Below, in pieces: positions 35,949-54,229 of a stretch of DNA of 64,000 nucleotides; the stretch's first letter is position 1; the number at the start of each line of letters is the position of its first letter. The notes under the pieces were generated by a model that saw only the letters and a list, made by a program, of their open reading frames with translations, was not told where the DNA came from and did not search any database. This DNA comes from Escherichia phage EP1: the sequence record OR892555.1; one strand, 5' to 3'. The position numbers and the translations under genes were made by a program.

Positions 35949-37061
35949 TTAGTCTTGTGGTGCAGCGTCAGAACGAACGTCTACCAGCAACTGAGGACGT
36001 GTGCAGTATGGCAGCATGTAAGAGTGAGCTTCGAAGTCAATACCTTCGTCACGGTCTTTTTCGTATTCGAATACATACAGTTCCTGACCAAGAGTATTTG
36101 CGTAACCCATCTTCGGACATGGGCCATATGCAACTTCGAAGATGTTGTTAGCTTCACCCAACATAGAAACGTTAGGGAACGCATGACCAACACCTACAGT
36201 GTTTGCTACGCCGTCGATGCTTACCAGAACGTGAGTCTTACCACGCTTATCTTGGAACTTACCGTTGTACTGTACAAACTTCACACCACCGTAGTAGAAT
36301 GTGTTCATATGAGCCTGAACGCCATCAGTACCACCAGTTCTCAGAGAGCCAGTAATCTGCTGCCAAGCCAGTGGAGTCTGCTGTGCAAGGTATGCGTCAC
36401 GAATCTTCGGATGCTTGATAAGCTTGCTGAAGAACAGACGGTCAACAACTACGTGAATTTCTTCACCGTTGATAACTGTACCAATCTTAGCTTCATCTTC
36501 CATGTGCATACGAAGTTCTTCGATAGCAGCGTCGATATCAGCGTTTGGATTGTCAAGGTCAAAGTAAACAGTCTTCTTCTCAACGTCAAACTGCTTGAAC
36601 AGGTCAGCATAAAGAACACCATTAGCGTCGATTACTTTACCCTTCAGAGCTTGCATAAACAAGAACTCACGAGTAATATCGAACTTGGTACGAATCTTCA
36701 TCAGCTTACGAGCACGAACGATAGCTTCAGTAGTCAGTTCGTTTGCAGTGCCTGGGCGACGTACACCCTGAATTTCATCAGGAGTGATGCTTTCAATTTC
36801 TTTGAAATACATCATTGGGAAGCTAATCTGCTTAACTTTCTCTGGAGCGCTCGTTTCAGCTTTGCGGCTGGTACGGTCTACAGCATCCAGTAAGCTAACA
36901 TCAGACTCAGTTAAATCCATCAGGAAAGTGGTCTGAGTGGTTGGAGCAGAACGGAAAAGACCCAAACCGGAAATATAACCGTAAGTATTTGGGATAGACT
37001 GGACTTCACCAGTCAGGTCAGCAAGGAAAAATCTGCTTTGTTCAGAATTGATTAATGCCAT
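35949..37061 (-). CDS. major capsid protein (lambda gpE-like family)
   Basis: 370 aa; C-terminal MLGEANNIFEVAYGPCPK...YMLPYCTRPQLLVDV parallels lambda gpE; preceded by D-like decoration and S49 protease genes. Confidence 0.75.
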   Translation of the reverse strand: MALINSEQSRFFLADLTGEVQSIPNTYGYISGLGLFRSAPTTQTTFLMDLTESDVSLLDAVDRTSRKAETSAPEKVKQISFPMMYFKEIESITPDEIQGVRRPGTANELTTEAIVRARKLMKIRTKFDITREFLFMQALKGKVIDANGVLYADLFKQFDVEKKTVYFDLDNPNADIDAAIEELRMHMEDEAKIGTVINGEEIHVVVDRLFFSKLIKHPKIRDAYLAQQTPLAWQQITGSLRTGGTDGVQAHMNTFYYGGVKFVQYNGKFQDKRGKTHVLVSIDGVANTVGVGHAFPNVSMLGEANNIFEVAYGPCPKMGYANTLGQELYVFEYEKDRDEGIDFEAHSYMLPYCTRPQLLVDVRSDAAPQD

Positions 37062-44122: not shown

Positions 44123-44199
44123 TGGTAGCCCATCGGGATTTGAACCCTGTTCTCATGTTTTTCAGACACGCGCTTTAACCATATAAGCTAATTGAGCTA
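44123..44199 (-). tRNA. tRNA, tentative Phe (anticodon GAA), atypical T-stem and acceptor/D-arm linker
   Basis: T-loop ATTTGAA with 3-bp GGG/CCC stem; anticodon loop CUGAAAA; acceptor TAGCTCA/TGGGCTA pairs with one G-U. Confidence 0.45.
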
Positions 44200-44206
44200 T
44201 TAAAAT

Positions 44207-44283
44207 TGGGGTGACCTACGGGAATCGAACCCGTATAGACCATGTTCACAGCATGGGTCATTATCCATTTATGATAAGGCCAC
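44207..44283 (-). tRNA. tRNA-His (anticodon GUG)
   Basis: T-arm ACGGG-AATCGAA-CCCGT; anticodon stem CCATG/CATGG with loop CUGUGAA; D-stem TCAT/ATGA. Confidence 0.7.
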
Positions 44284-44314
44284 ATGTAAGGACTCTCGTA
44301 AGAACCCTTAGAGG

Positions 44315-44390
44315 TGGCAGCAGCGTAAGGATTTGAACCTTAATCTTTCAGCTTCAGAGGCTGGAGCATTGCCAGTTATGCTACACTGCT
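44315..44390 (-). tRNA. tRNA-Gln (anticodon CUG)
   Basis: T-arm TAAGG-ATTTGAA-CCTTA; anticodon loop CUCUGAA; D-stem GCAT/ATGC. Confidence 0.65.
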
Positions 44391-44397
44391 ATTAATT

Positions 44398-44468
44398 TGG
44401 TACTCCATATCGGATTCGAACCGATACATAACACAGATTTTAAGTCTGGCCTCTCTGCCAATTGGAGT
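44398..44468 (-). tRNA. tRNA-like gene, anticodon loop reads UAA (Leu-type) but D-arm appears truncated
   Basis: Perfect T-arm ATCGG-ATTCGAA-CCGAT and 6-bp acceptor; only about 10 nt available for the D-arm. Confidence 0.4.
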
Positions 44469-44478
44469 AATGGAGCAT

Positions 44479-44554
44479 TGGCGGGGGATGTTGGAATTGA
44501 ACCAACTTCTTCGATTTCAAAGACCGAGGTTTTAACCTTGTAAACTAATCCCCT
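44479..44554 (-). tRNA. tRNA-Gln (anticodon UUG)
   Basis: T-arm GTTGG-AATTGAA-CCAAC; anticodon loop CUUUGAA; D-stem GTTT/AAAC. Confidence 0.6.
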
Positions 44555-44562
44555 TTAAATCT

Positions 44563-45120
44563 TTACTTTCTTAGTGGATGAATAAAGAATGCCAACATAA
44601 TTCTTTCCCTTGAGAATGCTCTTTCTTCTGGGACAACACTTTTAAGTTTCCATCCAACATAAATTCTCCAGTAAAACTGTTTACCAAAGACTTTAATTGA
44701 TGGGATAAAAGCGAATAATCCCCAAGCATTCCTATTCCACATCAGGAGATAACCTGTCTGATTATCTTCAGGGTTAGAACTTACGTTGATATTACCTTTC
44801 CACTTAGTAACATCTTTTACATCTCTTCCTAATACATGGTAAGAGAAGTTATAAGCTTTGTTTCTCCAGAGCCACCCAACTCTCTGCATATAAACACCAA
44901 GCTTACCAATCTTTCTAATCTTAGCCCATCGCTCAACGTGACCTTTGTCACCGTCAATTGGGTTATCATAAGTTTCCATCCATCTGAATCCAAAAGGTAG
45001 ATGGCCTTTCTTCTCACTGTAGAATGGAACAACAAAAGGTGCTAAGATTACTGCTAAGATTGCTGCAAATGGCTCTAGCAAAGCTAGGAAAATCCATGAA
45101 GCATACTTCAAATATCTCAT
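44563..45120 (-). CDS. membrane protein embedded in the tRNA array
   Basis: ORF trimmed to MRYLKYAS to avoid tRNA overlap; N-terminal TM segment ASWIFLALLEPFAAILAVILAPFVV. Confidence 0.4.
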   Translation of the reverse strand: MRYLKYASWIFLALLEPFAAILAVILAPFVVPFYSEKKGHLPFGFRWMETYDNPIDGDKGHVERWAKIRKIGKLGVYMQRVGWLWRNKAYNFSYHVLGRDVKDVTKWKGNINVSSNPEDNQTGYLLMWNRNAWGLFAFIPSIKVFGKQFYWRIYVGWKLKSVVPEERAFSRERIMLAFFIHPLRK

Positions 45121-45140
45121 TTTAAATAGCCTCTTTAAAT

Positions 45141-45216
45141 TGGTGCAGAATAAGGGATTCGAACCCCTATTAACAGCTTCGTAGACTGTTGCTCTATCCA
45201 TTTGAACTAATCCTGC
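45141..45216 (-). tRNA. tRNA-Arg (anticodon ACG)
   Basis: T-arm AAGGG-ATTCGAA-CCCCT; anticodon loop CUACGAA. Confidence 0.6.
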
Positions 45217-45330
45217 TTCCCTACGAGAACACCATACAGTTTTTCACAAACTTTGTTTTTACGTCTGTTTAGGTATGACGCTCTAAACTTTTTTGCGATG
45301 GAGTTATTGCTCATAGTGCTCTCCTCAAAT

Positions 45331-45408
45331 TGGTGTTCCAAGACGGATTCGAACCGTCACTAATACAAGGTTTGAGCTTGCATCCTCTGCCAATTGGGAT
45401 ACTGGAAC
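45331..45408 (-). tRNA. tRNA with anticodon CAA (Leu-type) but short variable region
   Basis: Well-formed cloverleaf in reverse complement (acceptor GTTCCAG/TTGGAAC, D-loop AATTGGCAG, T-loop TTCGAAT); anticodon loop CUCAAAC; 78 nt. Confidence 0.55.
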
Positions 45409-45410
45409 AT

Positions 45411-45485
45411 TGGTACTCGCTGAAGGAATTGAACCTTCTTTACCAACTTGTAAGGATGGGGCTTTACCGTATAAACTAAGCGAGT
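45411..45485 (-). tRNA. tRNA-Val (anticodon UAC)
   Basis: Acceptor ACTCGCT/AGCGAGT perfect; T-arm GAAGG-AATTGAA-CCTTC; anticodon loop CUUACAA. Confidence 0.65.
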
Positions 45486-45490
45486 ATGAA

Positions 45491-45578
45491 AAGAGGTCTG
45501 AAGTTGTGCCGCTAACTCAACTCCGTGGAATTTGTTACGGTCTTCAGTTGACTCAAGCGGTCTTTCACTCGACCTCTG
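45491..45578. ncRNA. structured element with acceptor-like terminal stem but no T-loop (candidate small RNA or degenerate tRNA)
   Basis: AGAGGTC (45492-45498) pairs with GACCTCT (45571-45577); internal hairpin CTGAAG...CTTCAG; fills a tRNA-sized gap in the array. Confidence 0.3.
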
Positions 45579-45581
45579 AAA

Positions 45582-45658
45582 TGGTGCTGCTCACAGGACT
45601 CGAACCTGCATTTCCATCCTTACAAGGGATGTGTAATAGCCAATTATACGAAAGCAGC
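45582..45658 (-). tRNA. tRNA-Thr (anticodon UGU)
   Basis: T-arm ACAGG-ACTCGAA-CCTGC; anticodon stem CATCC/GGATG with loop CUUGUAA. Confidence 0.7.
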
Positions 45659-45664
45659 ATTGTT

Positions 45665-45739
45665 TGGAGCATCCAGAGGGAATCGAACCCTCAACCTCAG
45701 TTTGGAAGACTGTAATTTTCCCGTTTAAACTATGGATGC
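45665..45739 (-). tRNA. tRNA-Gly (anticodon UCC)
   Basis: Acceptor GCATCCA/TGGATGC perfect; T-arm GAGGG-AATCGAA-CCCTC; anticodon loop CUUCCAA. Confidence 0.65.
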
Positions 45740-45745
45740 ACTAAT

Positions 45746-45821
45746 TGGTGGAGAAGCAGGGAATTGAACCCTGTACTTAAGTTTGCAAAACTTATGTTTT
45801 AACCATGTAAACTACATCCCC
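45746..45821 (-). tRNA. tRNA-Ala (anticodon UGC)
   Basis: T-arm CAGGG-AATTGAA-CCCTG; anticodon stem TAAGT/ACTTA with loop UUUGCAA. Confidence 0.65.
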
Positions 45822-45827
45822 AATGTT

Positions 45828-45903
45828 TGGTACAGGTGGAGGGAATTGAACCCATCATCTTACTGATTAAGAGTCAGCCGCATAACCATTTTGCTACACC
45901 TGC
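45828..45903 (-). tRNA. tRNA-Lys (anticodon CUU), tentative
   Basis: T-loop AATTGAA with GGG/CCC stem; anticodon loop CUCUUAA; acceptor ACAGGTG/CACCTGC. Confidence 0.55.
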
Positions 45904-45910
45904 ATTAATT

Positions 45911-45988
45911 TGGTAGGAGACAAGGGATTCGAACCCTCAAACACCAACTTCTAAGGATGGTAGGTTTACCAATTACCGTCAATCTCCC
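45911..45988 (-). tRNA. tRNA with anticodon UAG (Leu-type) but short variable region, structure partly unresolved
   Basis: T-arm AAGGG-ATTCGAA-CCCTC; acceptor with two G-U pairs; anticodon loop CUUAGAA; D-loop AATTGGTAA. Confidence 0.45.
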
Positions 45989-46052
45989 ATTAAATCTTTG
46001 TAGAGAACTGCTAAGACGCCAAAGCAACAATGGTATCAAATGCCTTAACAAT

Positions 46053-46080
46053 TCTCTAAAAAGACCTAACTGGTCTTTGC
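46053..46080 (-). terminator. hairpin, possible minus-strand terminator inside the tRNA array (weak)
   Basis: AAAGACC-taact-GGTCTTT stem followed by short U-run on the minus strand. Confidence 0.3.
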
Positions 46081-46229
46081 ATAGTCTTGTTTAATCCGGT
46101 GACTATAACCTTTGGAGAGCTTGATATTATCTCTTCTCCGTGACACCTACTAGGTGCTTTGTTGTGCGTGTACGACAATACACGAGGGAAACCGAACGCT
46201 GTACCAGAGCGTGGGCTTAAATCTCATTA

Positions 46230-46319
46230 GGCGGTAGATAAAGGAGTCGAACCCTCACCGTATCACTACAATGGCAATTGTTTTCAAGACAATTTGGCTT
46301 CCATTAGCCGCTATCTACC
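46230..46319 (-). tRNA. tRNA-Ser (anticodon UGA), long variable arm
   Basis: Acceptor GGTAGAT/ATCTACC; anticodon stem ATTGT/ACAAT with loop CUUGAAA; about 87 nt. Confidence 0.65.
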
Positions 46320-46332
46320 CCTAATAAGACTG

Positions 46333-46737
46333 TTAAACCTCTAACAGTCCTGCATGAACTTTCCTATGACAGTTAGAACACAGTACAACACATTTTCTAA
46401 CTTCTCTCTTAATAGTCCCTCTAGAGTAAGTCTTTAAATTGCTAGGTTCAAAGTCTTTTTCATTTGGGTCTAAATGGTGGAAGTCTAATGCTACTGGTTC
46501 AGATTCACCACAAACTCTGCATTTGCAGATTCTTTTGTATCGGTTAAGAAACTCTCTGTTTCTTTTTCTGTCAGCTACCGCCCTAATTTTCCTTTTAGCT
46601 TTATAAGTTGGGTCTTCTTGATACTTCTTAGAAGAGTATTTGGATTTGCAATCTTTGCATACTGACTGGTATCCATTACCACGCTTATGAAAACAACTTA
46701 AAGGTTTTTCTTGTGAGCATTTTCTACAAAGTTTCAT
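46333..46737 (-). CDS. HNH homing endonuclease inserted in the tRNA array
   Basis: Cys-rich zinc-binding N-terminus; HNH core DFHHLDPNEK ... CSNCHRKVH. Confidence 0.65.
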   Translation of the reverse strand: MKLCRKCSQEKPLSCFHKRGNGYQSVCKDCKSKYSSKKYQEDPTYKAKRKIRAVADRKRNREFLNRYKRICKCRVCGESEPVALDFHHLDPNEKDFEPSNLKTYSRGTIKREVRKCVVLCSNCHRKVHAGLLEV

Positions 46738-46751
46738 ACAAGTACCTATTC

Positions 46752-46822
46752 TGGCAGGGGTGTAGAGATTCGAACTCTAATCAAGAATTTTGGAGACTCT
46801 ATTGCTGCCTTAGCTCACCCCT
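46752..46822 (-). tRNA. tRNA-Trp (anticodon CCA), tentative
   Basis: Acceptor AGGGGTG/CACCCCT perfect; T-arm TAGAG-ATTCGAA-CTCTA; anticodon loop CUCCAAA; short D-arm. Confidence 0.6.
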
Positions 46823-46993
46823 ATTAACACTATAATTCGAAGCTTACCGTATTGTCACAACACTGTCAAGCCTCTTCTCAGATTATTTACATGTTCTGGA
46901 AAACATGAGATACAGACCACCTCCTTATGAAGTTGACTCATCTGAATCAACACGGAGACCCGCTAAGGTCGTCTAAGTAATCTGCTAACTAAT

Positions 46994-47070
46994 TGGCACA
47001 CCCTACAGGGCTCGAACCTGTAACTCAGTGCTTAGAAGGCACTTGCTCTATCCAATTGAACTAAGGGTGC
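46994..47070 (-). tRNA. tRNA-Arg (anticodon UCU)
   Basis: T-arm ACAGG-GCTCGAA-CCTGT; anticodon stem AGTGC/GCACT with loop CUUCUAA. Confidence 0.7.
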
Positions 47071-47320
47071 ATTCTTATCTTTAAAGGCTCTCTTAGAAAA
47101 CCCTTAAAGATGCCCACCTTATTAATCATACCGTGGGCGAGTACGCCAAATTCTTTGATGAGGGGTTGGAAGACCTCACTGGTGTTTAGCCTATTAAGCT
47201 ACTGCCAGAAAAACATTATCGTTTGCATTTATTTTAGTTTGCAAAAATAGACGCTACGCTAACGAAAACTAAGGTTACTATAAAGTGGTCACATCTGAAT
47301 GTCAACAACTTTATCGAATT

Positions 47321-47396
47321 TGGTAGTGGTAGCAGGAATCGAACCTGCGATGTTCGGTTATCAGCCGAGTGTTATGACCGTCTTAACTATACCACC
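47321..47396 (-). tRNA. tRNA-Ile (anticodon GAU)
   Basis: T-arm GCAGG-AATCGAA-CCTGC; anticodon loop CUGAUAA. Confidence 0.6.
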
Positions 47397-47398
47397 AT

Positions 47399-47475
47399 TG
47401 GAGGTTCAGATGGGATTCGAACCCACATTCATAGGGCTTATGAAACCCTTGCATTACCTTATCTGCGACTGAACC
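47399..47475 (-). tRNA. tRNA-Met (anticodon CAU), G-C-rich anticodon stem
   Basis: Acceptor GGTTCAG/CTGAACC perfect; T-arm ATGGG-ATTCGAA-CCCAC; anticodon stem AGGGC/ACCCT with loop UUCAUAA. Confidence 0.65.
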
Positions 47476-47554
47476 ATAATAAGTTGCCCTTTGGAGAAGA
47501 ACTATTGAGTGGGTGTTTCCAGCCGCGCAGGTGTTCTTCAGTTAAGGGCGAATT
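47476..47554. ncRNA. structured element with acceptor-like terminal stem but no T-loop (candidate small RNA)
   Basis: TTGCCCT (about 47484-47490) pairs with AGGGCGA (about 47544-47550); shares a TTCAGTT motif with the element at 45491. Confidence 0.25.
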
Positions 47555-47630
47555 TGGTAGGAGTGGAGGGATTCGAACCCGTCGCCTGTCAGATTAAAAG
47601 TCTGCCGCATCACCATTCTGCTACACTCCC
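47555..47630 (-). tRNA. tRNA-Lys (anticodon UUU)
   Basis: T-loop ATTCGAA with GGG/CCC stem; anticodon stem TCAGA/TCTGC with loop CUUUUAA. Confidence 0.65.
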
Positions 47631-47775
47631 ATTAAATCATCTTTGCAGTAACCTACGCAAACCTTGCTAAAGGGTTTGTAGAGTCATTTCCTATTAAGCT
47701 AATCTAGAATCATGCTAAGGAAATTCATCGGCACTCATGGGACGACATTTAGCTCCATAAGCCACTGCAAAGAGG

Positions 47776-47907
47776 ATTACCAGACCGTTGTTTTATCTTA
47801 AGTGCTCCCATTACACCAACACGCCGTAACGTGTGAAGGAATCGAACCTTCGCCTTTTCTTTACCAGAGAAATAGATTGTTTAATACTTGCTGTAAACGG
47901 TCTTCTG
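47776..47907 (-). ncRNA. tRNA-like RNA lacking a canonical acceptor stem, enclosed by a long-range stem (candidate Y-RNA-like or pseudo-tRNA)
   Basis: Minus strand reads AGACCGTT...[anticodon-like arm TTTCT-CTGGTAA-AGAAA][T-arm GAAGG-TTCGATT-CCTTC][hairpin ACACG-TTACGG-CGTGT]...AACGGTCT; ends pair over 8 bp. Confidence 0.4.
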
Positions 47908-47919
47908 TAAATTTGTTGA

Positions 47920-47993
47920 GCCAGACCAAGTTTTAAATTATTCAAATTAATTGGCTTGAAATTTTTAAGTTGGCTTGCTGAATTTGGTCTTCT
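47920..47993 (-). repeat. hairpin spacer module, copy B1 (CAGAAGACCAA ... TTGGTCTGG)
   Basis: AGACCAA (47922-47928) complementary to TTGGTCT (47983-47989); conserved flanks shared with copies at 47779, 48388, 48544. Confidence 0.5.
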
Positions 47994-48055
47994 GCTCCTT
48001 TAAAGAATACTCGTAAGAACTCTTTAAGGGATGGGCTAAAAAGCCCTCTCAAATT

Positions 48056-48133
48056 TGGCGGTTACGAAGGGATTCGAACCCTCATCATCTCCCGTGACAG
48101 GGGAGTATTTTAACCAGATTAAACTACATAACC
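48056..48133 (-). tRNA. tRNA-Asp (anticodon GUC)
   Basis: T-arm AAGGG-ATTCGAA-CCCTC; anticodon stem CTCCC/GGGAG with loop CUGUCAC. Confidence 0.7.
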
Positions 48134-48139
48134 TTTGTT

Positions 48140-48227
48140 TGGTGCGCCGTGAAGGAGTCGAACCTACCGAGTCATAATGACAAGTGATTTACAGTCACCA
48201 CCGCTTCCATCTACGGGATAACGACGC
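48140..48227 (-). tRNA. tRNA-Tyr (anticodon GUA), long variable arm
   Basis: 88 nt; T-arm GAAGG-AGTCGAA-CCTAC; anticodon loop CUGUAAA. Confidence 0.65.
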
Positions 48228-48297
48228 ATTTTATTCTATTCAGGCTAAGGACTTGCACCTTACAAATCGGTGAGCATTACGCTTCTCTCCCAAATCT

Positions 48298-48374
48298 TGG
48301 CGGTGAGTTAGGGATTCGAACCCTATACCATTCGGTTAACAGCCGACCGCACATGCCTTATGTGCTTCCTCACC
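48298..48374 (-). tRNA. tRNA-Asn (anticodon GUU)
   Basis: T-arm TAGGG-ATTCGAA-CCCTA; anticodon loop CUGUUAA. Confidence 0.7.
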
Positions 48375-48387
48375 ATGTTTAGTATTG

Positions 48388-48449
48388 CCAGACCGTATCT
48401 TTTCATTTTTTCCTATAAAAATTTTGAGATTGCTGTAAACGGTCTTCTG
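48388..48449 (-). repeat. hairpin spacer module, copy A2 (CAGAAGACCGT ... ACGGTCTGG)
   Basis: AGACCGT (48390-48396) complementary to ACGGTCT (48439-48445); lies between tRNA-Asn and the CAU tRNA. Confidence 0.5.
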
Positions 48450-48455
48450 CAAATT

Positions 48456-48532
48456 TGGAGGCGGGTGTTGGAGTCGAACCAACCGTTACCATGCTAATGA
48501 GACATGTGAGACACCCTTTCTCTATACCCGCG
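48456..48532 (-). tRNA. tRNA with anticodon CAU (Met, fMet or Ile-lysidine type)
   Basis: T-arm GTTGG-AGTCGAA-CCAAC; D-stem GAGA/TCTC; anticodon loop CUCAUUA; position 1-72 mismatched. Confidence 0.6.
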
Positions 48533-48543
48533 ATTCTTAATGA

Positions 48544-48607
48544 CCAGACCAAGTTTTATTTTCTATAAGCGAAGAAAGTTTTTTAACTTGCTGAATTTGG
48601 TCTTCTG
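48544..48607 (-). repeat. hairpin spacer module, copy B2 (CAGAAGACCAA ... TTGGTCTGG)
   Basis: AGACCAA (48546-48552) complementary to TTGGTCT (48597-48603). Confidence 0.5.
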
Positions 48608-48614
48608 TCAAATT

Positions 48615-48689
48615 TGGAGTCGTAGACGGGATTCGAACCCGCGAGCAACTGATTGAAGGTCAGGTGGCTAACCATTTGCCTTCTACGAC
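48615..48689 (-). tRNA. tRNA-Glu (anticodon UUC), tentative (C at position 33)
   Basis: Acceptor GTCGTAG/CTACGAC perfect; T-arm ACGGG-ATTCGAA-CCCGC; anticodon loop CCUUCAA. Confidence 0.55.
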
Positions 48690-48696
48690 ATTAATT

Positions 48697-48773
48697 TGGT
48701 CTCCGTTGAGGGAGTTGAACCCTCGACCCCTTGCTCCCAAAGCAAGTGCTCTGCCAAACTGAGCTAAACGGAA
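48697..48773 (-). tRNA. tRNA-Pro (anticodon UGG)
   Basis: T-arm GAGGG-AGTTGAA-CCCTC; anticodon stem CTTGC/GCAAG with loop UUUGGGA. Confidence 0.7.
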
Positions 48774-48940: not shown

Positions 48941-50356
48941 TTACCAGATGTAACGGTCAATCATTACTGCTTTGAGCATTACGCTGATTGGGTCAAACTT
49001 CTCACCACCAAGCAGAGCCTTTAAAGTGGCTGGAGAGAAACCTGATACCATCGCTACTCCGTTATCATTTACGGATACTTCGCAGTGACCATTACGGTTT
49101 GCTAAGTACCAGAATACCAGTTGTGGCATCTCATATCCAGCTTTTTCATACTTACTACGAATTACTTCGAAGTTTGTACGACCATTTGCCCCGTCAACCT
49201 GATTAAACTCCATATCAGAGAAGATAATAAGCTTACTTGGCATTGCTGCCTGAGTCAAGTTATTTCTTACACCAATTTCAAGAATACGGTCAAATGCTGC
49301 TTGTAGGTTTGTAGAACCATACTCAACATGACTCATAATCTGACGATGACGATTCTGTAAAGTGCCACTCAGGGTGATAAAGTGAGGTCTGTCTGAGTAA
49401 ATCATTAACTCGTCTTTAAAACAACCTGTATTGCGTTCTGAGACGTATAACGCCAGAGACACACCAATATCAAGAGCGGTTACTGAACCAAATGTTTCCC
49501 AAGTCATAGAGCATGATACATCTGTCATACAAAGGATGTTTTCACCATCAGCCATCCAGTTTGGTAGTGCTTTCCACTGTTCATTAGCAACTTGTGCTTT
49601 ACCACGCTGAACAGATTTAAGAACATCATAAGGGTATACAGCACCAGCATTAATCTTCGTCTCGCCCTTAGATAGAGCTTCAACGTAAGCTGCATAACGT
49701 TCACCATCTTTCTTACTGAACAGTTTTTGATAACGTGCAGCAGCCAGTGAAGGAATCTTACTGTAGTCAATCTCGCCAAAGTTATTTGTAGAGATTTTCT
49801 GTTCAACGGTGTCAGATAAAGCTGACAGCAGTGTACGGTACTCTTTCTCACTCAAGTTTGCAAATTTACAGAAACGTTTTACAAACTGCTTGTGGCGTGG
49901 TTTTACTCGTGGTAACCACTTAGCTGCTAAACATGCTGTATCAGGGTCTAACAAAGCTTCTTCTAAATGCTTGAAAGCATCTGTCTCATAACGAGTACCT
50001 ACGAAGATTTTGAAGTCATCGAAACGACCTAATTCAGAAATCTTATCCATGATACGAAGAACTTGGAAAGAATCCAGAATGTTATCTTCGATTGCTTGTA
50101 AGAGGACAGTTCGGAAAGCTTTACGCTCACCCATACCTTCTCGTACATCTCGCATATGCAGTAAAATACGAACTGCTACATCAACATCCTCACGCAAAGC
50201 TTTGTAGAACAAGTCTGGGAGAATCTCTACATTGTTACGGCTTGAACCAGCAGCTTTGTAGAAGTCTACCAAGGCAGACATTGATGATGTATGGTTAACA
50301 GCACCATTTTCAGTTCGCCCTGCATTGAGGTGCGAATGCTTAAATAAATCGCTCAT
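48941..50356 (-). CDS. Ro60-like protein: helical TROVE-like N-terminal region plus C-terminal vWA domain with MIDAS motif
   Basis: C-terminal MTDVSCSMTWE (DxSxS) ... GSTNLQAAF ... LVFWYLANRNGHCEVSVNDNGVAMVSGFS parallels the Ro60 vWA domain; 471 aa; directly upstream of the tRNA array on the same strand. Confidence 0.6.
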   Translation of the reverse strand: MSDLFKHSHLNAGRTENGAVNHTSSMSALVDFYKAAGSSRNNVEILPDLFYKALREDVDVAVRILLHMRDVREGMGERKAFRTVLLQAIEDNILDSFQVLRIMDKISELGRFDDFKIFVGTRYETDAFKHLEEALLDPDTACLAAKWLPRVKPRHKQFVKRFCKFANLSEKEYRTLLSALSDTVEQKISTNNFGEIDYSKIPSLAAARYQKLFSKKDGERYAAYVEALSKGETKINAGAVYPYDVLKSVQRGKAQVANEQWKALPNWMADGENILCMTDVSCSMTWETFGSVTALDIGVSLALYVSERNTGCFKDELMIYSDRPHFITLSGTLQNRHRQIMSHVEYGSTNLQAAFDRILEIGVRNNLTQAAMPSKLIIFSDMEFNQVDGANGRTNFEVIRSKYEKAGYEMPQLVFWYLANRNGHCEVSVNDNGVAMVSGFSPATLKALLGGEKFDPISVMLKAVMIDRYIW

Positions 50357-51432: not shown

Positions 51433-52016
51433 CCGTAAGTTTTAATTATAATAGTGATGGTTCTGTATCCGTCACTTCACCTTATGCAAATGACCTCTTA
51501 AAAGAGTTGGTTAATCAGTGTGGAAGAGGTATGCACTACGTACCTGACACTTTTAAACAGAAGACAATTGCAAATAACCTGATGCGTGTGACAGTAAGCA
51601 ATACAAACCCGTCATATGACTTGAGCGAAGAATCTCCATATTCACTTATGGCTCTTGGTGAAGACAGCAAATTTAAGCTTGTTTGCCATGATTCTGAGAC
51701 TTTCCTTAAGGTATTCTCAAACCTCATCCACAATTCTAAATATTCATACGTAGATGGCTCTGTGTCATTCTACCCAGCAAACTACACATGTGTTCTTGTG
51801 GACAATATGAGAAGTGGTGAACTAATCCCTACAGATATCTCGTTTGATGTGAACACTACACCAGACGCAACTCCAAGAAATGACTTCGACATGGATTATG
51901 CACTTGCTTTGAGTAAGAAATCTGAGTTCATTGAGTATGTCAATGGATTCGGCTTTAAGTTTGATGAGACTATGAATCTCAAAAAGCTTAAAAACCTGCT
52001 TAAGACTAAAGCTTAA
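51426..52016 (+). CDS. hypothetical protein (196 aa)
   Basis: ORF track; followed by terminator. Confidence 0.4.
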   Translation: MLTVSFNYNSDGSVSVTSPYANDLLKELVNQCGRGMHYVPDTFKQKTIANNLMRVTVSNTNPSYDLSEESPYSLMALGEDSKFKLVCHDSETFLKVFSNLIHNSKYSYVDGSVSFYPANYTCVLVDNMRSGELIPTDISFDVNTTPDATPRNDFDMDYALALSKKSEFIEYVNGFGFKFDETMNLKKLKNLLKTKA

Positions 52017-52021
52017 GCACT

Positions 52022-52041
52022 TCGGGGCGAAAGCCCCTTTT
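52022..52041 (+). terminator. rho-independent terminator
   Basis: GGGGC-gaaa-GCCCC hairpin followed by TTTTT. Confidence 0.6.
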
Positions 52042-52061
52042 TAATTATTTAAGGATAGATA

Positions 52062-52436
52062 ATGAAGGCGAAGAGTGGAAAAGACTTTTACTGCTTCCTA
52101 CAATCCTATGTACAAACAATTGAAGAAGGTGAGAGATATAATCTTGAAGATGTTCTCCCAACTCCTTTGACGTGGCATACTAGTAAATGGCCTGAAACGG
52201 ATATCCAACCAACCACTGCAACCTTCAAATACACCCCTAAAATTGACCTACCAGATTCTGAAGGATTACTCTACCCAATGTTTCACATTGTCGGTCTAGG
52301 TACTTTCCTTATGGATATTCAGTATGTAATGGGTAAGGGATATAAAATTGAAGGTGTAGTTCTTGGTGATGTTTCTCCGCAACACAAAGGCTACTTCAGA
52401 TTAAATGCAAGATTAGAGGCTAATAAAAATGATTAA
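52062..52436 (+). CDS. hypothetical protein, paralog of the N-terminal domain of the next gene
   Basis: SKWPETDI, FLMDIQYVM and LNARLE align with SPWPEADI, FFMDLQYAI and LNAKLK in the 52429 product. Confidence 0.45.
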   Translation: MKAKSGKDFYCFLQSYVQTIEEGERYNLEDVLPTPLTWHTSKWPETDIQPTTATFKYTPKIDLPDSEGLLYPMFHIVGLGTFLMDIQYVMGKGYKIEGVVLGDVSPQHKGYFRLNARLEANKND

Positions 52437-53313
52437 GGCAAAAACATACCCAGATTTTAAAGAGTTCGTCAAAGGTTTTATTGCGAACGTTAAGGCTGGT
52501 AAAAGATATGACTTCAGAACATATCAGGAAGCTATTCTCCCACTAACTTACAGTTCACCTTGGCCTGAAGCAGACATTGCAGAGTCGACCAACTTCACTT
52601 ACGAGCCAGCCTACACAGTGCCATTCAGTCAAGAACTTCTTTACAGCATCGGTGCTCAAATGAGAACTTCTGATTTCTTTATGGATTTGCAGTATGCAAT
52701 CATTAATGGTAAGGATGTTGACACGGTTTACTGTGAATGGCTTGCAAGAGTCAAACCCTTCTCAATGCTTAACGCAAAACTGAAAGATGCTGTAGTTCCT
52801 CCAGTAATCACTACACAGCCAACTAACCAGACTATTAATGAGGGTGACACGTTGACTCTGAGTATCGTTGCAACTGGTGCTACAGGCCATCAGTGGAAGA
52901 AAGGTGCAAGTAACATCTCCGGTGCAACATCTGCAACCTACACAAAATCAAACGTAGTCCCTGCTGATGCTGGTTCTTACACTTGCGTAGTAACTGGAGA
53001 GGGTGGTGTAACGGTAACGTCAAACGCTGCAACTGTGACGGTGAATGCTTTACCCGTAATCACTACGCAGCCACAAAACGTTGAAATCACTGAAGGTGAA
53101 ACTCTTGAGTTGAGCATCGTGGCTACTGGAGCAACTGGTTACCAGTGGAAGAAAGGTGCTGACAACATCTCTGGAGCAACTTCAGCAACTTACACAAAAG
53201 AGAATGCAACAACTGCTGACGATGCCGGAACGTACACTTGTGTAGTTACTGGTGCAGGTGGTTCTGTGACTTCTAACGCAGCTACTGTTGTGGTTAACGA
53301 AGTAGGAGGTTAA
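52429..53313 (+). CDS. protein with two tandem Ig-like domains (Hoc-like surface/decoration candidate)
   Basis: C-terminal duplicated about 85-aa unit ITTQP.N..I.EG.TL.LSIVATGATG.QWKKGA.NISGATSATYTK...AG.YTCVVTG. Confidence 0.55.
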   Translation: MIKAKTYPDFKEFVKGFIANVKAGKRYDFRTYQEAILPLTYSSPWPEADIAESTNFTYEPAYTVPFSQELLYSIGAQMRTSDFFMDLQYAIINGKDVDTVYCEWLARVKPFSMLNAKLKDAVVPPVITTQPTNQTINEGDTLTLSIVATGATGHQWKKGASNISGATSATYTKSNVVPADAGSYTCVVTGEGGVTVTSNAATVTVNALPVITTQPQNVEITEGETLELSIVATGATGYQWKKGADNISGATSATYTKENATTADDAGTYTCVVTGAGGSVTSNAATVVVNEVGG

Positions 53314-53315
53314 TA

Positions 53316-53780
53316 ATGCGACTCTCTGATAAGGGGCTTGCAGCAATTAAGTTCTTTGAAGGGCTTCGTCTAGAAGCCTATAAAGACTCTGCTGGAATCC
53401 CAACAATCGGGTACGGTACAATTCGTATTGGTGGTAAACCTGTTACGATGGGTATGAAGATTACTGCTGCACAAGCTGAACAGTATCTGCTTGCAGATGT
53501 TGAAAGCTATGTTGGTGCAGTGAACAAAGCTATCAAGGTTCCAACTTCTCAAAATGAGTTTGATGCTCTCGTTGTAGAAACTTACAACATCGGTATCACA
53601 GCTATGAGAGATTCCACTTTCATCAAGCGTCACAATGCTGGTAACAAAGCTGGCTGTGCTGAAGCTATGCAGTGGTGGAACAAGGTAACGGTCAATGGTA
53701 AGAAAGAAGTTTCTAAGGGTCTGCAAAACAGACGTCGCTTAGAAGCTAAAATTTATCTTGACGCTGTTTATCCTAAATAG
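53316..53780 (+). CDS. endolysin, GH24 lysozyme family (T4 e / P22 gp19-like)
   Basis: N-terminal FEGLRLEAYKDSAGIPTIGYGT catalytic motif region; 154 aa. Confidence 0.75.
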   Translation: MRLSDKGLAAIKFFEGLRLEAYKDSAGIPTIGYGTIRIGGKPVTMGMKITAAQAEQYLLADVESYVGAVNKAIKVPTSQNEFDALVVETYNIGITAMRDSTFIKRHNAGNKAGCAEAMQWWNKVTVNGKKEVSKGLQNRRRLEAKIYLDAVYPK

Positions 53781-53788
53781 TAGATTTA

Positions 53789-53813
53789 GAGGCTCCTTCG
53801 GGAGCCTTTTTTA
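53789..53813 (+). terminator. rho-independent terminator after endolysin
   Basis: GGCTCC-ttcg-GGAGCC hairpin followed by TTTTTT. Confidence 0.6.
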
Positions 53814-53818
53814 TTTCT

Positions 53819-54229
53819 ATGGAGAAAACTATGAAGATTTGGGCTAGTGATGTTGGAACTTTCAAATACACCCGTAGTGGTATGAAGGTTCGTATCAGTG
53901 GGAGTAAGATTGTGACCTTGGGAGATAAGGTTTACAGCAAGTTTATTGTTGAGGTGATTGAGCGTTCGCCTATCACAATTGCTAACAACGCTTTCTATGT
54001 AGGTAGCATGTACAACGTGGATGGTGAAGGTATGTTCAGTCCACTTGGTGAGAATGGTTTAGATATTATTTCAGAACACCCCTTGACAAGAGAGCAGCTT
54101 TCCGGTTACTATAAAAGCCTACTTGAGAAGCAGAAAGCTTTGCATAAAGGTGAGGCTAACTACCACAACAACCAGTGCATCAAGCTTCTGGACAAGATTG
54201 AAAAAGCTGAGAGAGGTTATTATGAATAA
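53819..54229 (+). CDS. hypothetical protein
   Basis: ORF track. Confidence 0.4.
   Translation: MEKTMKIWASDVGTFKYTRSGMKVRISGSKIVTLGDKVYSKFIVEVIERSPITIANNAFYVGSMYNVDGEGMFSPLGENGLDIISEHPLTREQLSGYYKSLLEKQKALHKGEANYHNNQCIKLLDKIEKAERGYYE

Follow-up and report, generated by a model that had tools for sequence, protein, structure and literature searches.

Two adjacent genes immediately 5' of the endolysin gene of Escherichia phage EP1 raise the question of whether both of their products are surface proteins of the virion, as was suggested in a sequence-only reading that described the pair as a possible variable surface-decoration or adhesion module. The window analysed is a 64,000-nucleotide stretch of DNA (record OR892555.1), and the phage that carries it belongs to the group Suspvirus (Ounavirinae). 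Both genes were found on the + strand where that reading had placed them, ORF A (124 aa) at 52062..52436 and ORF B (294 aa) at 52429..53313, and the gene directly 3' of ORF B (53316..53780, + strand), which had been called the endolysin, indeed encodes a GH24 phage lysozyme (PF00959, 2.6e-39; phrog_7, 1.5e-57). That the two genes are tandem paralogues, as also proposed, was evident from a BLASTP comparison (34% identity over 126 aa, E 2e-16) in which the similarity of ORF A was confined to residues 2-119 of ORF B, and from the match of each ORF to the PHROG family of the other at about 4e-15. The motifs originally pointed out (WPE.DI, F.MD.QY and LNA.L), like QWKK and YTC, are real and correspond to columns that do not vary in the alignment of the family.

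The identity of ORF B was established by phmmer and PHROG searches. Matches in the PDB included 9ncf_S (E 7.5e-214) and 9c2d_S (E 1.6e-199), phrog_3995 spanned the full length of the protein (3.5e-162) and the sequence was 100% identical to WQY99584.1, 'decoration protein [Escherichia phage EP1]'. The orthologous capsid-binding domains (CapBDs) of Sf14 gp20 and Bas63 Hex-Dec have been solved by cryo-EM (9C2D and 9NCF), and these proteins are Hoc-like monomers centred on the 60 pentamer-proximal hexamers of a T=9 capsid (PMC11821841; PMC12609058). The CapBD of ORF B (residues 1-119; 52429..52785, + strand), assigned by identity to the solved CapBDs, is 88-91% identical to them and matches with a TM of 0.78 (Foldseek). 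In the Sf14 paper, Arg79 and Arg107 are described as forming salt bridges with Asp221 in the major capsid protein (MCP); both arginines are present in ORF B, and the MCP of the window (35949..37061, - strand; phmmer 9ncf_A, E 3e-232 and 9c2d_A, E 9e-230), the inferred partner of the CapBD, has an Asp at position 222, within a conserved KIRDAY, that corresponds to Asp221 of Sf14 gp34. Orthology and the retention of the anchor residues and the capsid Asp are thus results of the present analysis, and location, stoichiometry, the anchoring residues themselves and presence in the virion are taken from the orthologue studies, including mass spectrometry that detected Sf14 gp20 and, with 44% coverage, Felix O1 gp36 in virions.

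ORF B is considered a Hoc-like decoration of the virion surface because its orthologues Sf14 gp20 and Bas63 Hex-Dec have been modelled on capsids by cryo-EM, and its own location on the capsid is carried over from these proteins on the strength of CapBD identity. By this reasoning, the N-terminal ~119 residues of ORF B would form a small, family-specific CapBD, which would sit as a monomer in the middle of each of the 60 pentamer-proximal hexamers in a T=9 capsid. Contacts of Arg79 and Arg107 with Asp221 in the MCP (Sf14 numbering) would anchor it there, and the two C-terminal I-set Ig-like domains would project away from the capsid, forming a fibre that is short and flexible like that of T4 Hoc. 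In Felix O1-like phages, the protein is already known as a decoration of the capsid. The CapBD family is narrow: when 1.84 billion representative proteins were searched with a profile, only 12 clusters were returned and no informative distant relative was among them. The surface-decoration proposal accordingly stands for ORF B, with orthologues observed on capsids by cryo-EM and in virions by mass spectrometry, but is not supported for the two genes as a pair.

Most GenBank, UniRef and PHROG annotations would instead make ORF B, and ORF A with it, a tail protein. Thus, phrog_3995 carries the label 'tail protein' and most records annotate the gene likewise, the UniRef name for ORF A orthologues is 'Tail protein' and gp36 was named 'major tail protein' in the Felix O1 paper. 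The PHROG tail matches, however, are limited to residues ~96-212 of ORF B, and the label appears to stem from the similarity of the Ig domains to those of Ig-bearing tail proteins. Moreover, two independent cryo-EM studies fit the orthologous CapBD into density at the centre of capsid hexamers (9C2D and 9NCF), which refutes the tail reading for the orthologues, and the annotation is explicitly called wrong in the Bas63 paper. A tail function for the EP1 proteins is considered almost certainly mistaken.

The claim that ORF B is extended by two Ig-like domains was borne out by both Pfam and structure prediction. Residues 125-208 and 209-294 form two repeats of 84-86 aa with a protein identity of 78% but a DNA identity of only 72.6%, and Tandem Repeats Finder did not find a DNA-level tandem repeat in 52000-53400. 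Pfam models Ig_3 (72.4 bits, cut-off 30), I-set (56.2 bits, cut-off 23.7) and Ig_2 all scored above gathering, each over two stretches of the protein, and the AlphaFold2 (AF2) model contained two beta-sandwiches with pLDDT of about 95 that matched I-set Ig domains arranged in tandem in Robo, MuSK and titin. Domain 1, of the I-set type, lies at 52801..53052 and domain 2, the terminal unit, at 53053..53310 (both + strand); the latter is nearest to Ig4 of Bas63 (80% identity). Variation in domain number among related phages, which had been suggested as a check, was also found. An exact 252-bp unit corresponding to domain 1 is missing from PC79-13 and mistaenkt, phages with 94-95% nt identity over the 3.3-kb locus, and the junction of this indel falls in a repeated CCnGTAATCACTACnCAGCC motif. 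Across the subfamily, products of the long gene have lengths of 210, 294, 372-378 and 460 aa, and an Ig number of 1-4 among Ounavirinae decoration proteins has been published (Bas63 paper). The present analysis established both the Ig fold of ORF B and the gain and loss of complete Ig units, with the junction in a linker motif that is repeated, and the latter is a clean case of such units coming and going between near-identical phages. The fibre formed by these domains may serve in adhesion or aggregation; adhesion to carbohydrate or mucus was proposed in both structure papers by analogy with Hoc (PMC11821841; PMC12609058).

The layout of the locus is conserved in several respects. The MCP gene is about 15 kb from ORF B on the opposite strand, which places ORF B outside the structural module, and the order of ORF B followed by the endolysin gene was kept in all Ounavirinae loci examined, such that the adjacency of ORF A and ORF B to the endolysin gene is conserved synteny. 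A terminator-like hairpin (GGGGC-GAAA-GCCCC followed by TTTTT; 52024..52045, + strand) separates ORF A from an upstream gene for a 196-aa protein. An equivalent of this hairpin is kept in REP11 and VpaE1, and in the Felix O1 genome paper it is given as a rho-independent terminator between ORF38 and ORF37 (PMC3185647). A second terminator-like hairpin, with a 9-bp stem that includes 5 GC pairs and is followed by a T-run, lies 3' of the endolysin gene (53788..53819, + strand). No promoter was assigned because the count of sigma-70 sites (15) was not above that in shuffled controls (12.5 +/- 3.4), and an Rfam search of 43.5-54 kb returned tRNAs only.

Reading of the sequence indicated that the stop of ORF A overlaps the start of ORF B by 8 nt (ATGATTAA, 52429-52436, + strand), and a GAGG Shine-Dalgarno-like motif occurs 9 nt 5' of the ORF B ATG. 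The start and stop of the short and long genes also overlap in Sf14, VpaE1, Bas63, Felix O1 and a metagenomic contig, the length of the overlap varying by genus from 8 nt here to 4 nt or 1 nt in other phages. Relative to ORF A, ORF B lies in the +1 frame, and a programmed frameshift joining the two was considered by sequence inspection only; it was dropped because no canonical zero-frame X XXY YYZ heptamer was found at the overlap and the overlap sequence differs between genera.

ORF A is 100% identical to WQM78929.1 of PC79-13, and its orthologues (phrog_4463) include Sf14 gp21, Bas63 bas63_0125, Felix O1 ORF37 and CHB7 gp94. The protein stops after the CapBD and is devoid of Ig domains, a Pfam search at E up to 1 giving no match. 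Presence of the CapBD fold in ORF A was indicated by the BLASTP similarity to ORF B and by an AF2 model of modest confidence (pLDDT 62) that matched only 9ncf_S and 9c2d_S in the PDB (TM 0.65) and only Ounavirinae proteins in BFVD. Among short paralogues, 96% have Gly at position 79 and 84% have Gln at position 107, and the anchor arginines were not found in ORF A. Loss of these residues was initially taken as a sign of lost capsid binding, but this interpretation was downgraded because Arg79, in place of which some single-copy outgroup proteins also have another residue, is no reliable marker of capsid binding. Thirty-six residues do not vary in either of the two paralogue families, among them polar and seemingly exposed motifs such as WPExDI, which would fit either retained capsid binding or mere conservation of the fold.

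Both paralogues occur in about 230 of 252 phage records, and the short and long copies form one clade each, in which a divergent metagenomic pair (P0098 and P0099) is included. In Kolesnikvirus and a Hafnia phage, only an Ig-bearing gene is present at the same syntenic position, and its CapBD is closer to the long copy than to the short. ORF A very probably arose by one ancient tandem duplication, in an ancestor shared by Felixounavirus, Mooglevirus, Suspvirus and the more distant metagenomic lineage. The gene is under purifying selection, with a dN/dS of 0.09-0.26 that is similar to that of the neighbouring endolysin and upstream genes. The gene has been lost in some phages. One decayed remnant of the short gene is common to a clade of 19 records in which Hex-Dec, with 1-2 Ig domains, is intact and has a CapBD dN/dS of 0.03-0.085 at dS up to 0.53, and in one isolate, SP3_SHan-2021, the short gene was deleted by recombination between the paralogues. 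Both the phage and Hex-Dec can dispense with ORF A. The identity and mechanism given above for ORF B, together with the account of ORF A as a paralogue of ancient origin that is selected and dispensable, are regarded as very likely.

In Felix O1, the short gene is expressed late, together with Hex-Dec. By RT-PCR, ORF36 and ORF37 were both classed as 'late, 60 min' and the flanking ORF35 and ORF38 as 'middle' (PMC3185647). ORF37 is missing from the Felix O1 virion list, which is restricted to the 17 top-ranking proteins, each with a coverage of 25% or more, and includes proteins of 9.7-13.7 kDa, and the short paralogue is not in the Sf14 mass-spectrometry table, which gives assigned structural genes only. 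Sf14 and Bas63 each encode an intact short paralogue, and their capsid maps contain density for Hex-Dec only and none on other hexamers, although a protein that is flexible, of low occupancy or labile during purification would escape icosahedral averaging. The upstream Ig-less paralogue is not discussed in the Sf14 and Bas63 structure papers, and gp21 is not mentioned in the supplement of the Sf14 paper. ORF A is thus probably not a stoichiometric component of the mature capsid, and the idea of a two-protein surface module is not supported for this gene, which is Ig-less, is absent from the Felix O1 virion list and has no counterpart density in two capsid maps.

The best guess, and a tentative one, is that ORF A still recognises capsid hexamers and is involved transiently or sub-stoichiometrically in head assembly or decoration. 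More speculatively, it may represent an unrecognised type of accessory factor for head assembly that evolved from a decoration protein, namely a late hexamer binder that is transient or low in copy and absent from mature purified virions. Such a protein might act on the procapsid or on facet-centre hexamers, or might compete with Hex-Dec, and so set where or when the latter docks. A permanent role on the capsid would be that of an Ig-less cap for the hexamer centres not open to Hex-Dec, namely the 20 at the facet centres, or that of a competitor of Hex-Dec by which the density of Ig fibres is tuned. It would agree with the shared CapBD fold and its 36 invariant residues and with late expression together with Hex-Dec. 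It would also agree with the geometry of Asp221 in facet-centre hexamers, which according to the Sf14 paper differs so as to disfavour contacts with Arg79 and Arg107, exactly the arginines that the short family lacks. The empty hexamers in maps of two phages that encode the short paralogue, and its absence from both the Felix O1 virion list and the Sf14 list of structural proteins, nonetheless make such a second decoration unlikely.

Dependence of Hex-Dec on ORF A, as a dedicated chaperone or assembly partner required for folding or capsid loading, was considered in view of the conserved start/stop overlap, which suggests translational coupling, the single late expression class of the two genes and the low-confidence prediction for the lone CapBD, which fits ordering of the domain on a partner. 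Persistence of an intact Hex-Dec under strong constraint in the 19-record clade with a decayed ORF A, and of an Ig-bearing gene without a short paralogue in Kolesnikvirus and the Hafnia phage, renders this very unlikely, and ORF A is probably neither a chaperone needed by Hex-Dec nor a permanent second decoration. The same decay, and the recombinational loss in SP3_SHan-2021, could point to a functionless duplicate, as could the faster evolution of ORF A (43% identity as opposed to 60% for the long CapBD at the same divergence). This is highly improbable, however, for a gene with a dN/dS as low as that of its neighbours, a frame that is intact in about 230 records from three genera as well as in a metagenomic lineage that diverged deeply, 42 family-specific fixed residues and a late transcript in Felix O1.

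These findings indicate that the common 'tail protein' label of ORF B is wrong in phage EP1 too, and they draw attention to the short paralogue as a conserved, late and apparently non-virion copy of the CapBD that occurs across hundreds of Felix O1-like phages, including some that serve in typing and biocontrol. With two high-resolution capsid structures already available, along with a natural loss clade and a natural chimera, its function could be tested cheaply and, if found, would show loading or regulation of decoration proteins.

Among known systems, Sf14 gp20 (9C2D/9C3A chain S) and Bas63 Hex-Dec (9NCF chain S) are full-length orthologues of ORF B, with 88-91% identity in the CapBD, the same Arg79 and Arg107, I-set Ig repeats and an MCP ~93% identical to that of the window. 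Synteny is also the same, with the short paralogue, Hex-Dec and endolysin genes in order and separated from the structural module by over 10 kb. The sole difference is in the number of Ig units, which is 2 in ORF B, 3 in Sf14 and 4 in Bas63, and the 2-Ig form has already been discussed for CHB7 gp95, SUSP2 and KPS64. T4 Hoc resembles the ORF B family as a hexamer-centre monomer with a small capsid-binding domain and a projecting string of Ig-like domains, and as a dispensable type of decoration. PHROG families of 'Hoc-like head decoration' matched only the Ig region of ORF B (residues ~116-291; 2.9e-27 and 6.2e-26), no match to Hoc reached the CapBD and no Hoc chain was among the PDB sequence matches listed (best 60 of 69). 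In contrast with Hoc, in which the capsid-binding domain is C-terminal, that of ORF B is N-terminal; the Hex-Dec CapBD is larger, topologically distinct and pseudo-C2-symmetric (Bas63 paper), and Hex-Dec fills only 60 of 80 hexamers, as shown for the orthologues of ORF B. T5 pb10 shares an Ig match with ORF B (PDB 5LXK Ig domain, E 1.2e-9) but has a single Ig domain and a capsid-binding domain with no detectable sequence match. Among homologues, gp038 of Kolesnikvirus phiEa104 and the protein of Hafnia phage Zyzzx have a homologous CapBD (30-37% identity) and are encoded at the same position 5' of the endolysin gene, whereas they carry a Big_2-type or other Ig-like domain in place of I-set units and are unaccompanied by a short paralogue.

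The short gene lacking Ig-like domains (ORF A; 52062-52436, plus strand, 124 aa) and the longer gene (ORF B; 52429-53313, plus strand, 294 aa) lie head to tail, the stop of the former and the start of the latter sharing an 8-nt overlap (ATGATTAA), and ORF B is directly followed by a GH24 lysozyme gene (53316-53780; PF00959, 2.6e-39). Terminator-like hairpins were noted on either side of this three-gene block (52024-52045 and 53788-53819), the upstream one being entered as a terminator in the Felix O1 paper (PMC3185647). In BLASTP, the alignment of ORF A covered residues 2-119 of ORF B (34% identity, E 2e-16), and PHROG family matches between the two were reciprocal (each approximately 4e-15). 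The remainder of ORF B consists of two repeats (Ig1, residues 125-208; Ig2, residues 209-294) that scored above the curated Pfam thresholds for Ig_3, I-set and Ig_2 and were modelled by AlphaFold2 as beta-sandwiches (pLDDT approximately 95), which superposed on tandem I-set domains of Robo, MuSK and titin. Thus, the sequence-only reading of this locus as tandem paralogues, the second with two Ig-like domains, was borne out in every detail by BLASTP, Pfam and structure prediction.

At 52801-53310, Ig1 and Ig2 had 78% identity at the amino-acid level but just 72.6% at the nucleotide level, which indicates divergence mostly at synonymous sites; such divergence would lower recombination between the two repeats. 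The longest exact DNA word common to both was 17 nt, and Tandem Repeats Finder called no repeat over these units because of their low DNA identity. After phage orthologues, the top PDB sequence match of the repeats was the Aureispira grappling-hook protein GhpA (PDB 9flp_A; E 2.5e-43, 10 stretches), which suggests an I-set-like repeat type common to ORF B and bacterial surface fibres.

Elsewhere in the window, ARAGORN identified a dense array of 22 tRNAs on the minus strand (44123-48773), to which Rfam added three tRNA-like matches (46755-46822, 47827-47890 and 48618-48689, the last at 53.7 bits). The array adjoins a minus-strand gene (48941-50356) whose 471-aa product contains DUF2828 and DUF7788 domains; in CHB7 this protein is labelled vWA-like, and in relatives 'RNA-binding protein'. 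No Rfam family other than tRNA was found near this gene.

ORF B is, on every testable feature, a member of the Ounavirinae family that includes Sf14 gp20 and the hexamer decoration protein (Hex-Dec) of Bas63. The 3.3-kb locus was 94-95% identical in DNA to those of Suspvirus phages CHB7, phiSUSP1, SUSP2 and PC79-13. ORF B itself matched chain S of 9NCF (Bas63) and of 9C2D/9C3A (Sf14) with E values of 1e-199 to 1e-214, and its modelled N-terminal domain superposed on these chains with a TM score of 0.78. According to the structure papers (PMC11821841, PMC12609058), the family protein is a Hoc-like monomer, found in Sf14 virions by mass spectrometry, with a capsid-binding domain (CapBD) made up of its N-terminal 118 residues; of the hexamers in the T=9 capsid, the 60 pentamer-proximal ones carry this domain at their centre and the 20 facet-centre ones are free of it; the Ig-like domains are flexible and point outward, and in Sf14 the CapBD is anchored through Arg79 and Arg107, their partner in the major capsid protein being Asp221. 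Both arginines are kept in ORF B, and the partner Asp is kept in the major capsid protein of the window (35949-37061, minus strand), which matched solved capsid proteins with E values of approximately 1e-230. We infer from this close orthology the same capsid location and anchoring mechanism in EP1. The Felix O1 orthologue, gp36, was detected at 44% coverage in CsCl-purified virions (PMC3185647). The surface-decoration role proposed from sequence is therefore right for the Ig-bearing gene, and it was already known: ORF B is 100% identical to GenBank 'decoration protein [Escherichia phage EP1]', at least one database entry thus being correctly annotated. The adhesive function suggested alongside that role is a putative one. 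The customary 'tail protein' annotation of this gene, which is separated from the structural module by more than 10 kb, is an error (PMC11821841, PMC12609058).

Both structure papers describe one to four Ig domains in this family, the two-domain form being represented by CHB7 gp95, treated in the Sf14 paper (PMC11821841, PMC12609058). The variation in domain number anticipated in the sequence-only reading was found among close relatives. In PC79-13 and mistaenkt, another Suspvirus phage of 94-95% DNA identity to the window across the locus, the protein is 210 aa long, with precisely Ig1 (252 bp, 52801-53052) missing; the junction falls inside the linker motif CCnGTAATCACTACnCAGCC (PVITTQP) that starts each Ig unit. 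Longer forms (372-378 aa and 460 aa) were noted in Sf14, VpaE1_ev035, P219 and Bas63. The units conserved across genera are the first and the last, Ig1 of the window being nearest to Bas63 Ig1 and Ig2 nearest to Bas63 Ig4. This pattern fits gain and loss through recombination between repeats. Other CapBD partners were also seen, i.e., a C-terminal Big_2-type Ig domain in Kolesnikvirus (phiEa104, L006:2941-3555; phi63_307, L012:2441-3055, where the 'kappa-carrageenase' annotation is surely mistaken), two different Ig-like units in Hafnia phage Zyzzx (L011:2501-3466) and, in metagenomic protein P0103, a tail rich in Lys and Ser and devoid of Ig domains.

The short paralogue is the sole part of this locus not treated in the Sf14 and Bas63 literature searched; neither 'paralog' nor Sf14 'gp21' occurs in the Sf14 structure paper or its supplement. 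Of 252 matching phage records, belonging to Felixounavirus, Mooglevirus and Suspvirus, about 230 have an orthologue of ORF A (approximately 123 aa, phrog_4463; e.g., Sf14 gp21, Bas63 bas63_0125 and Felix O1 ORF37) directly upstream of Hex-Dec. When 1.84 billion representative proteins were searched with a profile, the whole CapBD family comprised only 12 clusters. Short and long copies formed separate clades in a neighbour-joining tree, a divergent 87-kb metagenomic contig carried a tandem short/long pair (P0098 and P0099) in the same synteny, and Kolesnikvirus and the Hafnia phage had the Ig-bearing gene alone at the syntenic position, with a CapBD nearer to the long copy than to the short. 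Together, these observations point to a single ancient duplication that gave rise to a derived, faster-evolving copy without Ig domains; across the same divergence, identity was 43% for the short copy and 60% for the long. The two families have 36 invariant residues in common and differ in a fixed manner at 42 positions, e.g., with Gly in place of Arg79 and Gln in place of Arg107 in the short copies. The AlphaFold2 model of ORF A, of moderate confidence (pLDDT 62), matched only the two Hex-Dec CapBDs in the PDB (TM 0.65) and nothing outside Ounavirinae in BFVD.

Several roles for the short protein were weighed. A dead duplicate is argued against by dN/dS values of 0.09-0.26, similar to those of the endolysin (0.05-0.11), the long CapBD being at 0.02-0.05; the short copy is thus not in general decay. 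An obligate chaperone of Hex-Dec is argued against by 19 Felixounavirus records (REP5-12, Tf, SP116, Z31, mio, P54 and others) with one decayed remnant in common, its start codon gone and approximately 240 bp deleted. This clade is a natural knockout in which Hex-Dec is intact and constrained (CapBD dN/dS 0.03-0.085 at dS up to 0.53), and Hex-Dec is thus independent of the short protein. The remnant common to the 19 records spans approximately 190 bp (L005:2306-2497 in REP11; the same region in SP116, P54, vB_CECAV_041 and mio, L015-L018). The taxonomy line of the 88-kb vB_EcoM_P54 record (L016, PV390658.1) reads Straboviridae/Tequatrovirus, probably a classification error since its locus is collinear with, and approximately 94% identical to, those of Felixounavirus phages. 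In Salmonella phage SP3_SHan-2021 (MW296865.1; L004:2501-3379), a single 292-aa gene replaces the pair, joining short-copy residues 1 to approximately 48 in frame with Hex-Dec from approximately residue 50 to the end at the common WPE-DI motif. This chimera amounts to a 374-bp deletion through paralogue recombination; it is unique among 213 matching records and may therefore be an assembly artefact.

A stoichiometric second decoration is argued against by the Sf14 and Bas63 maps, in which density is seen only on hexamers that carry Hex-Dec although both phages encode the short protein (PMC11821841, PMC12609058), and by the published Felix O1 virion protein list, which includes proteins of 9.7-13.7 kDa but not ORF37 (PMC3185647). 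On the same evidence, the proposal that the short gene belongs to the surface module is probably wrong. By RT-PCR, Felix O1 ORF36 and ORF37 were both 'late, 60 min', the class of the morphogenesis genes, and neighbouring ORF35 and ORF38 were 'middle' (PMC3185647). A dispensable late accessory, perhaps one that still recognises capsid hexamers, if only briefly or in few copies, is put forward as a tentative and rather doubtful reading of ORF A, the negative virion evidence being soft. The residual interest of the locus is this unexplained short paralogue.

With respect to T4 Hoc, the CapBD lies at the opposite end of the protein from that of ORF B, the ORF B CapBD had no sequence match to Hoc among the best 60 of 69 PDB matches and, according to the Bas63 authors, the topology of the Hex-Dec CapBD is different. 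ORF B resembles Hoc in the way it works, without being its homologue.
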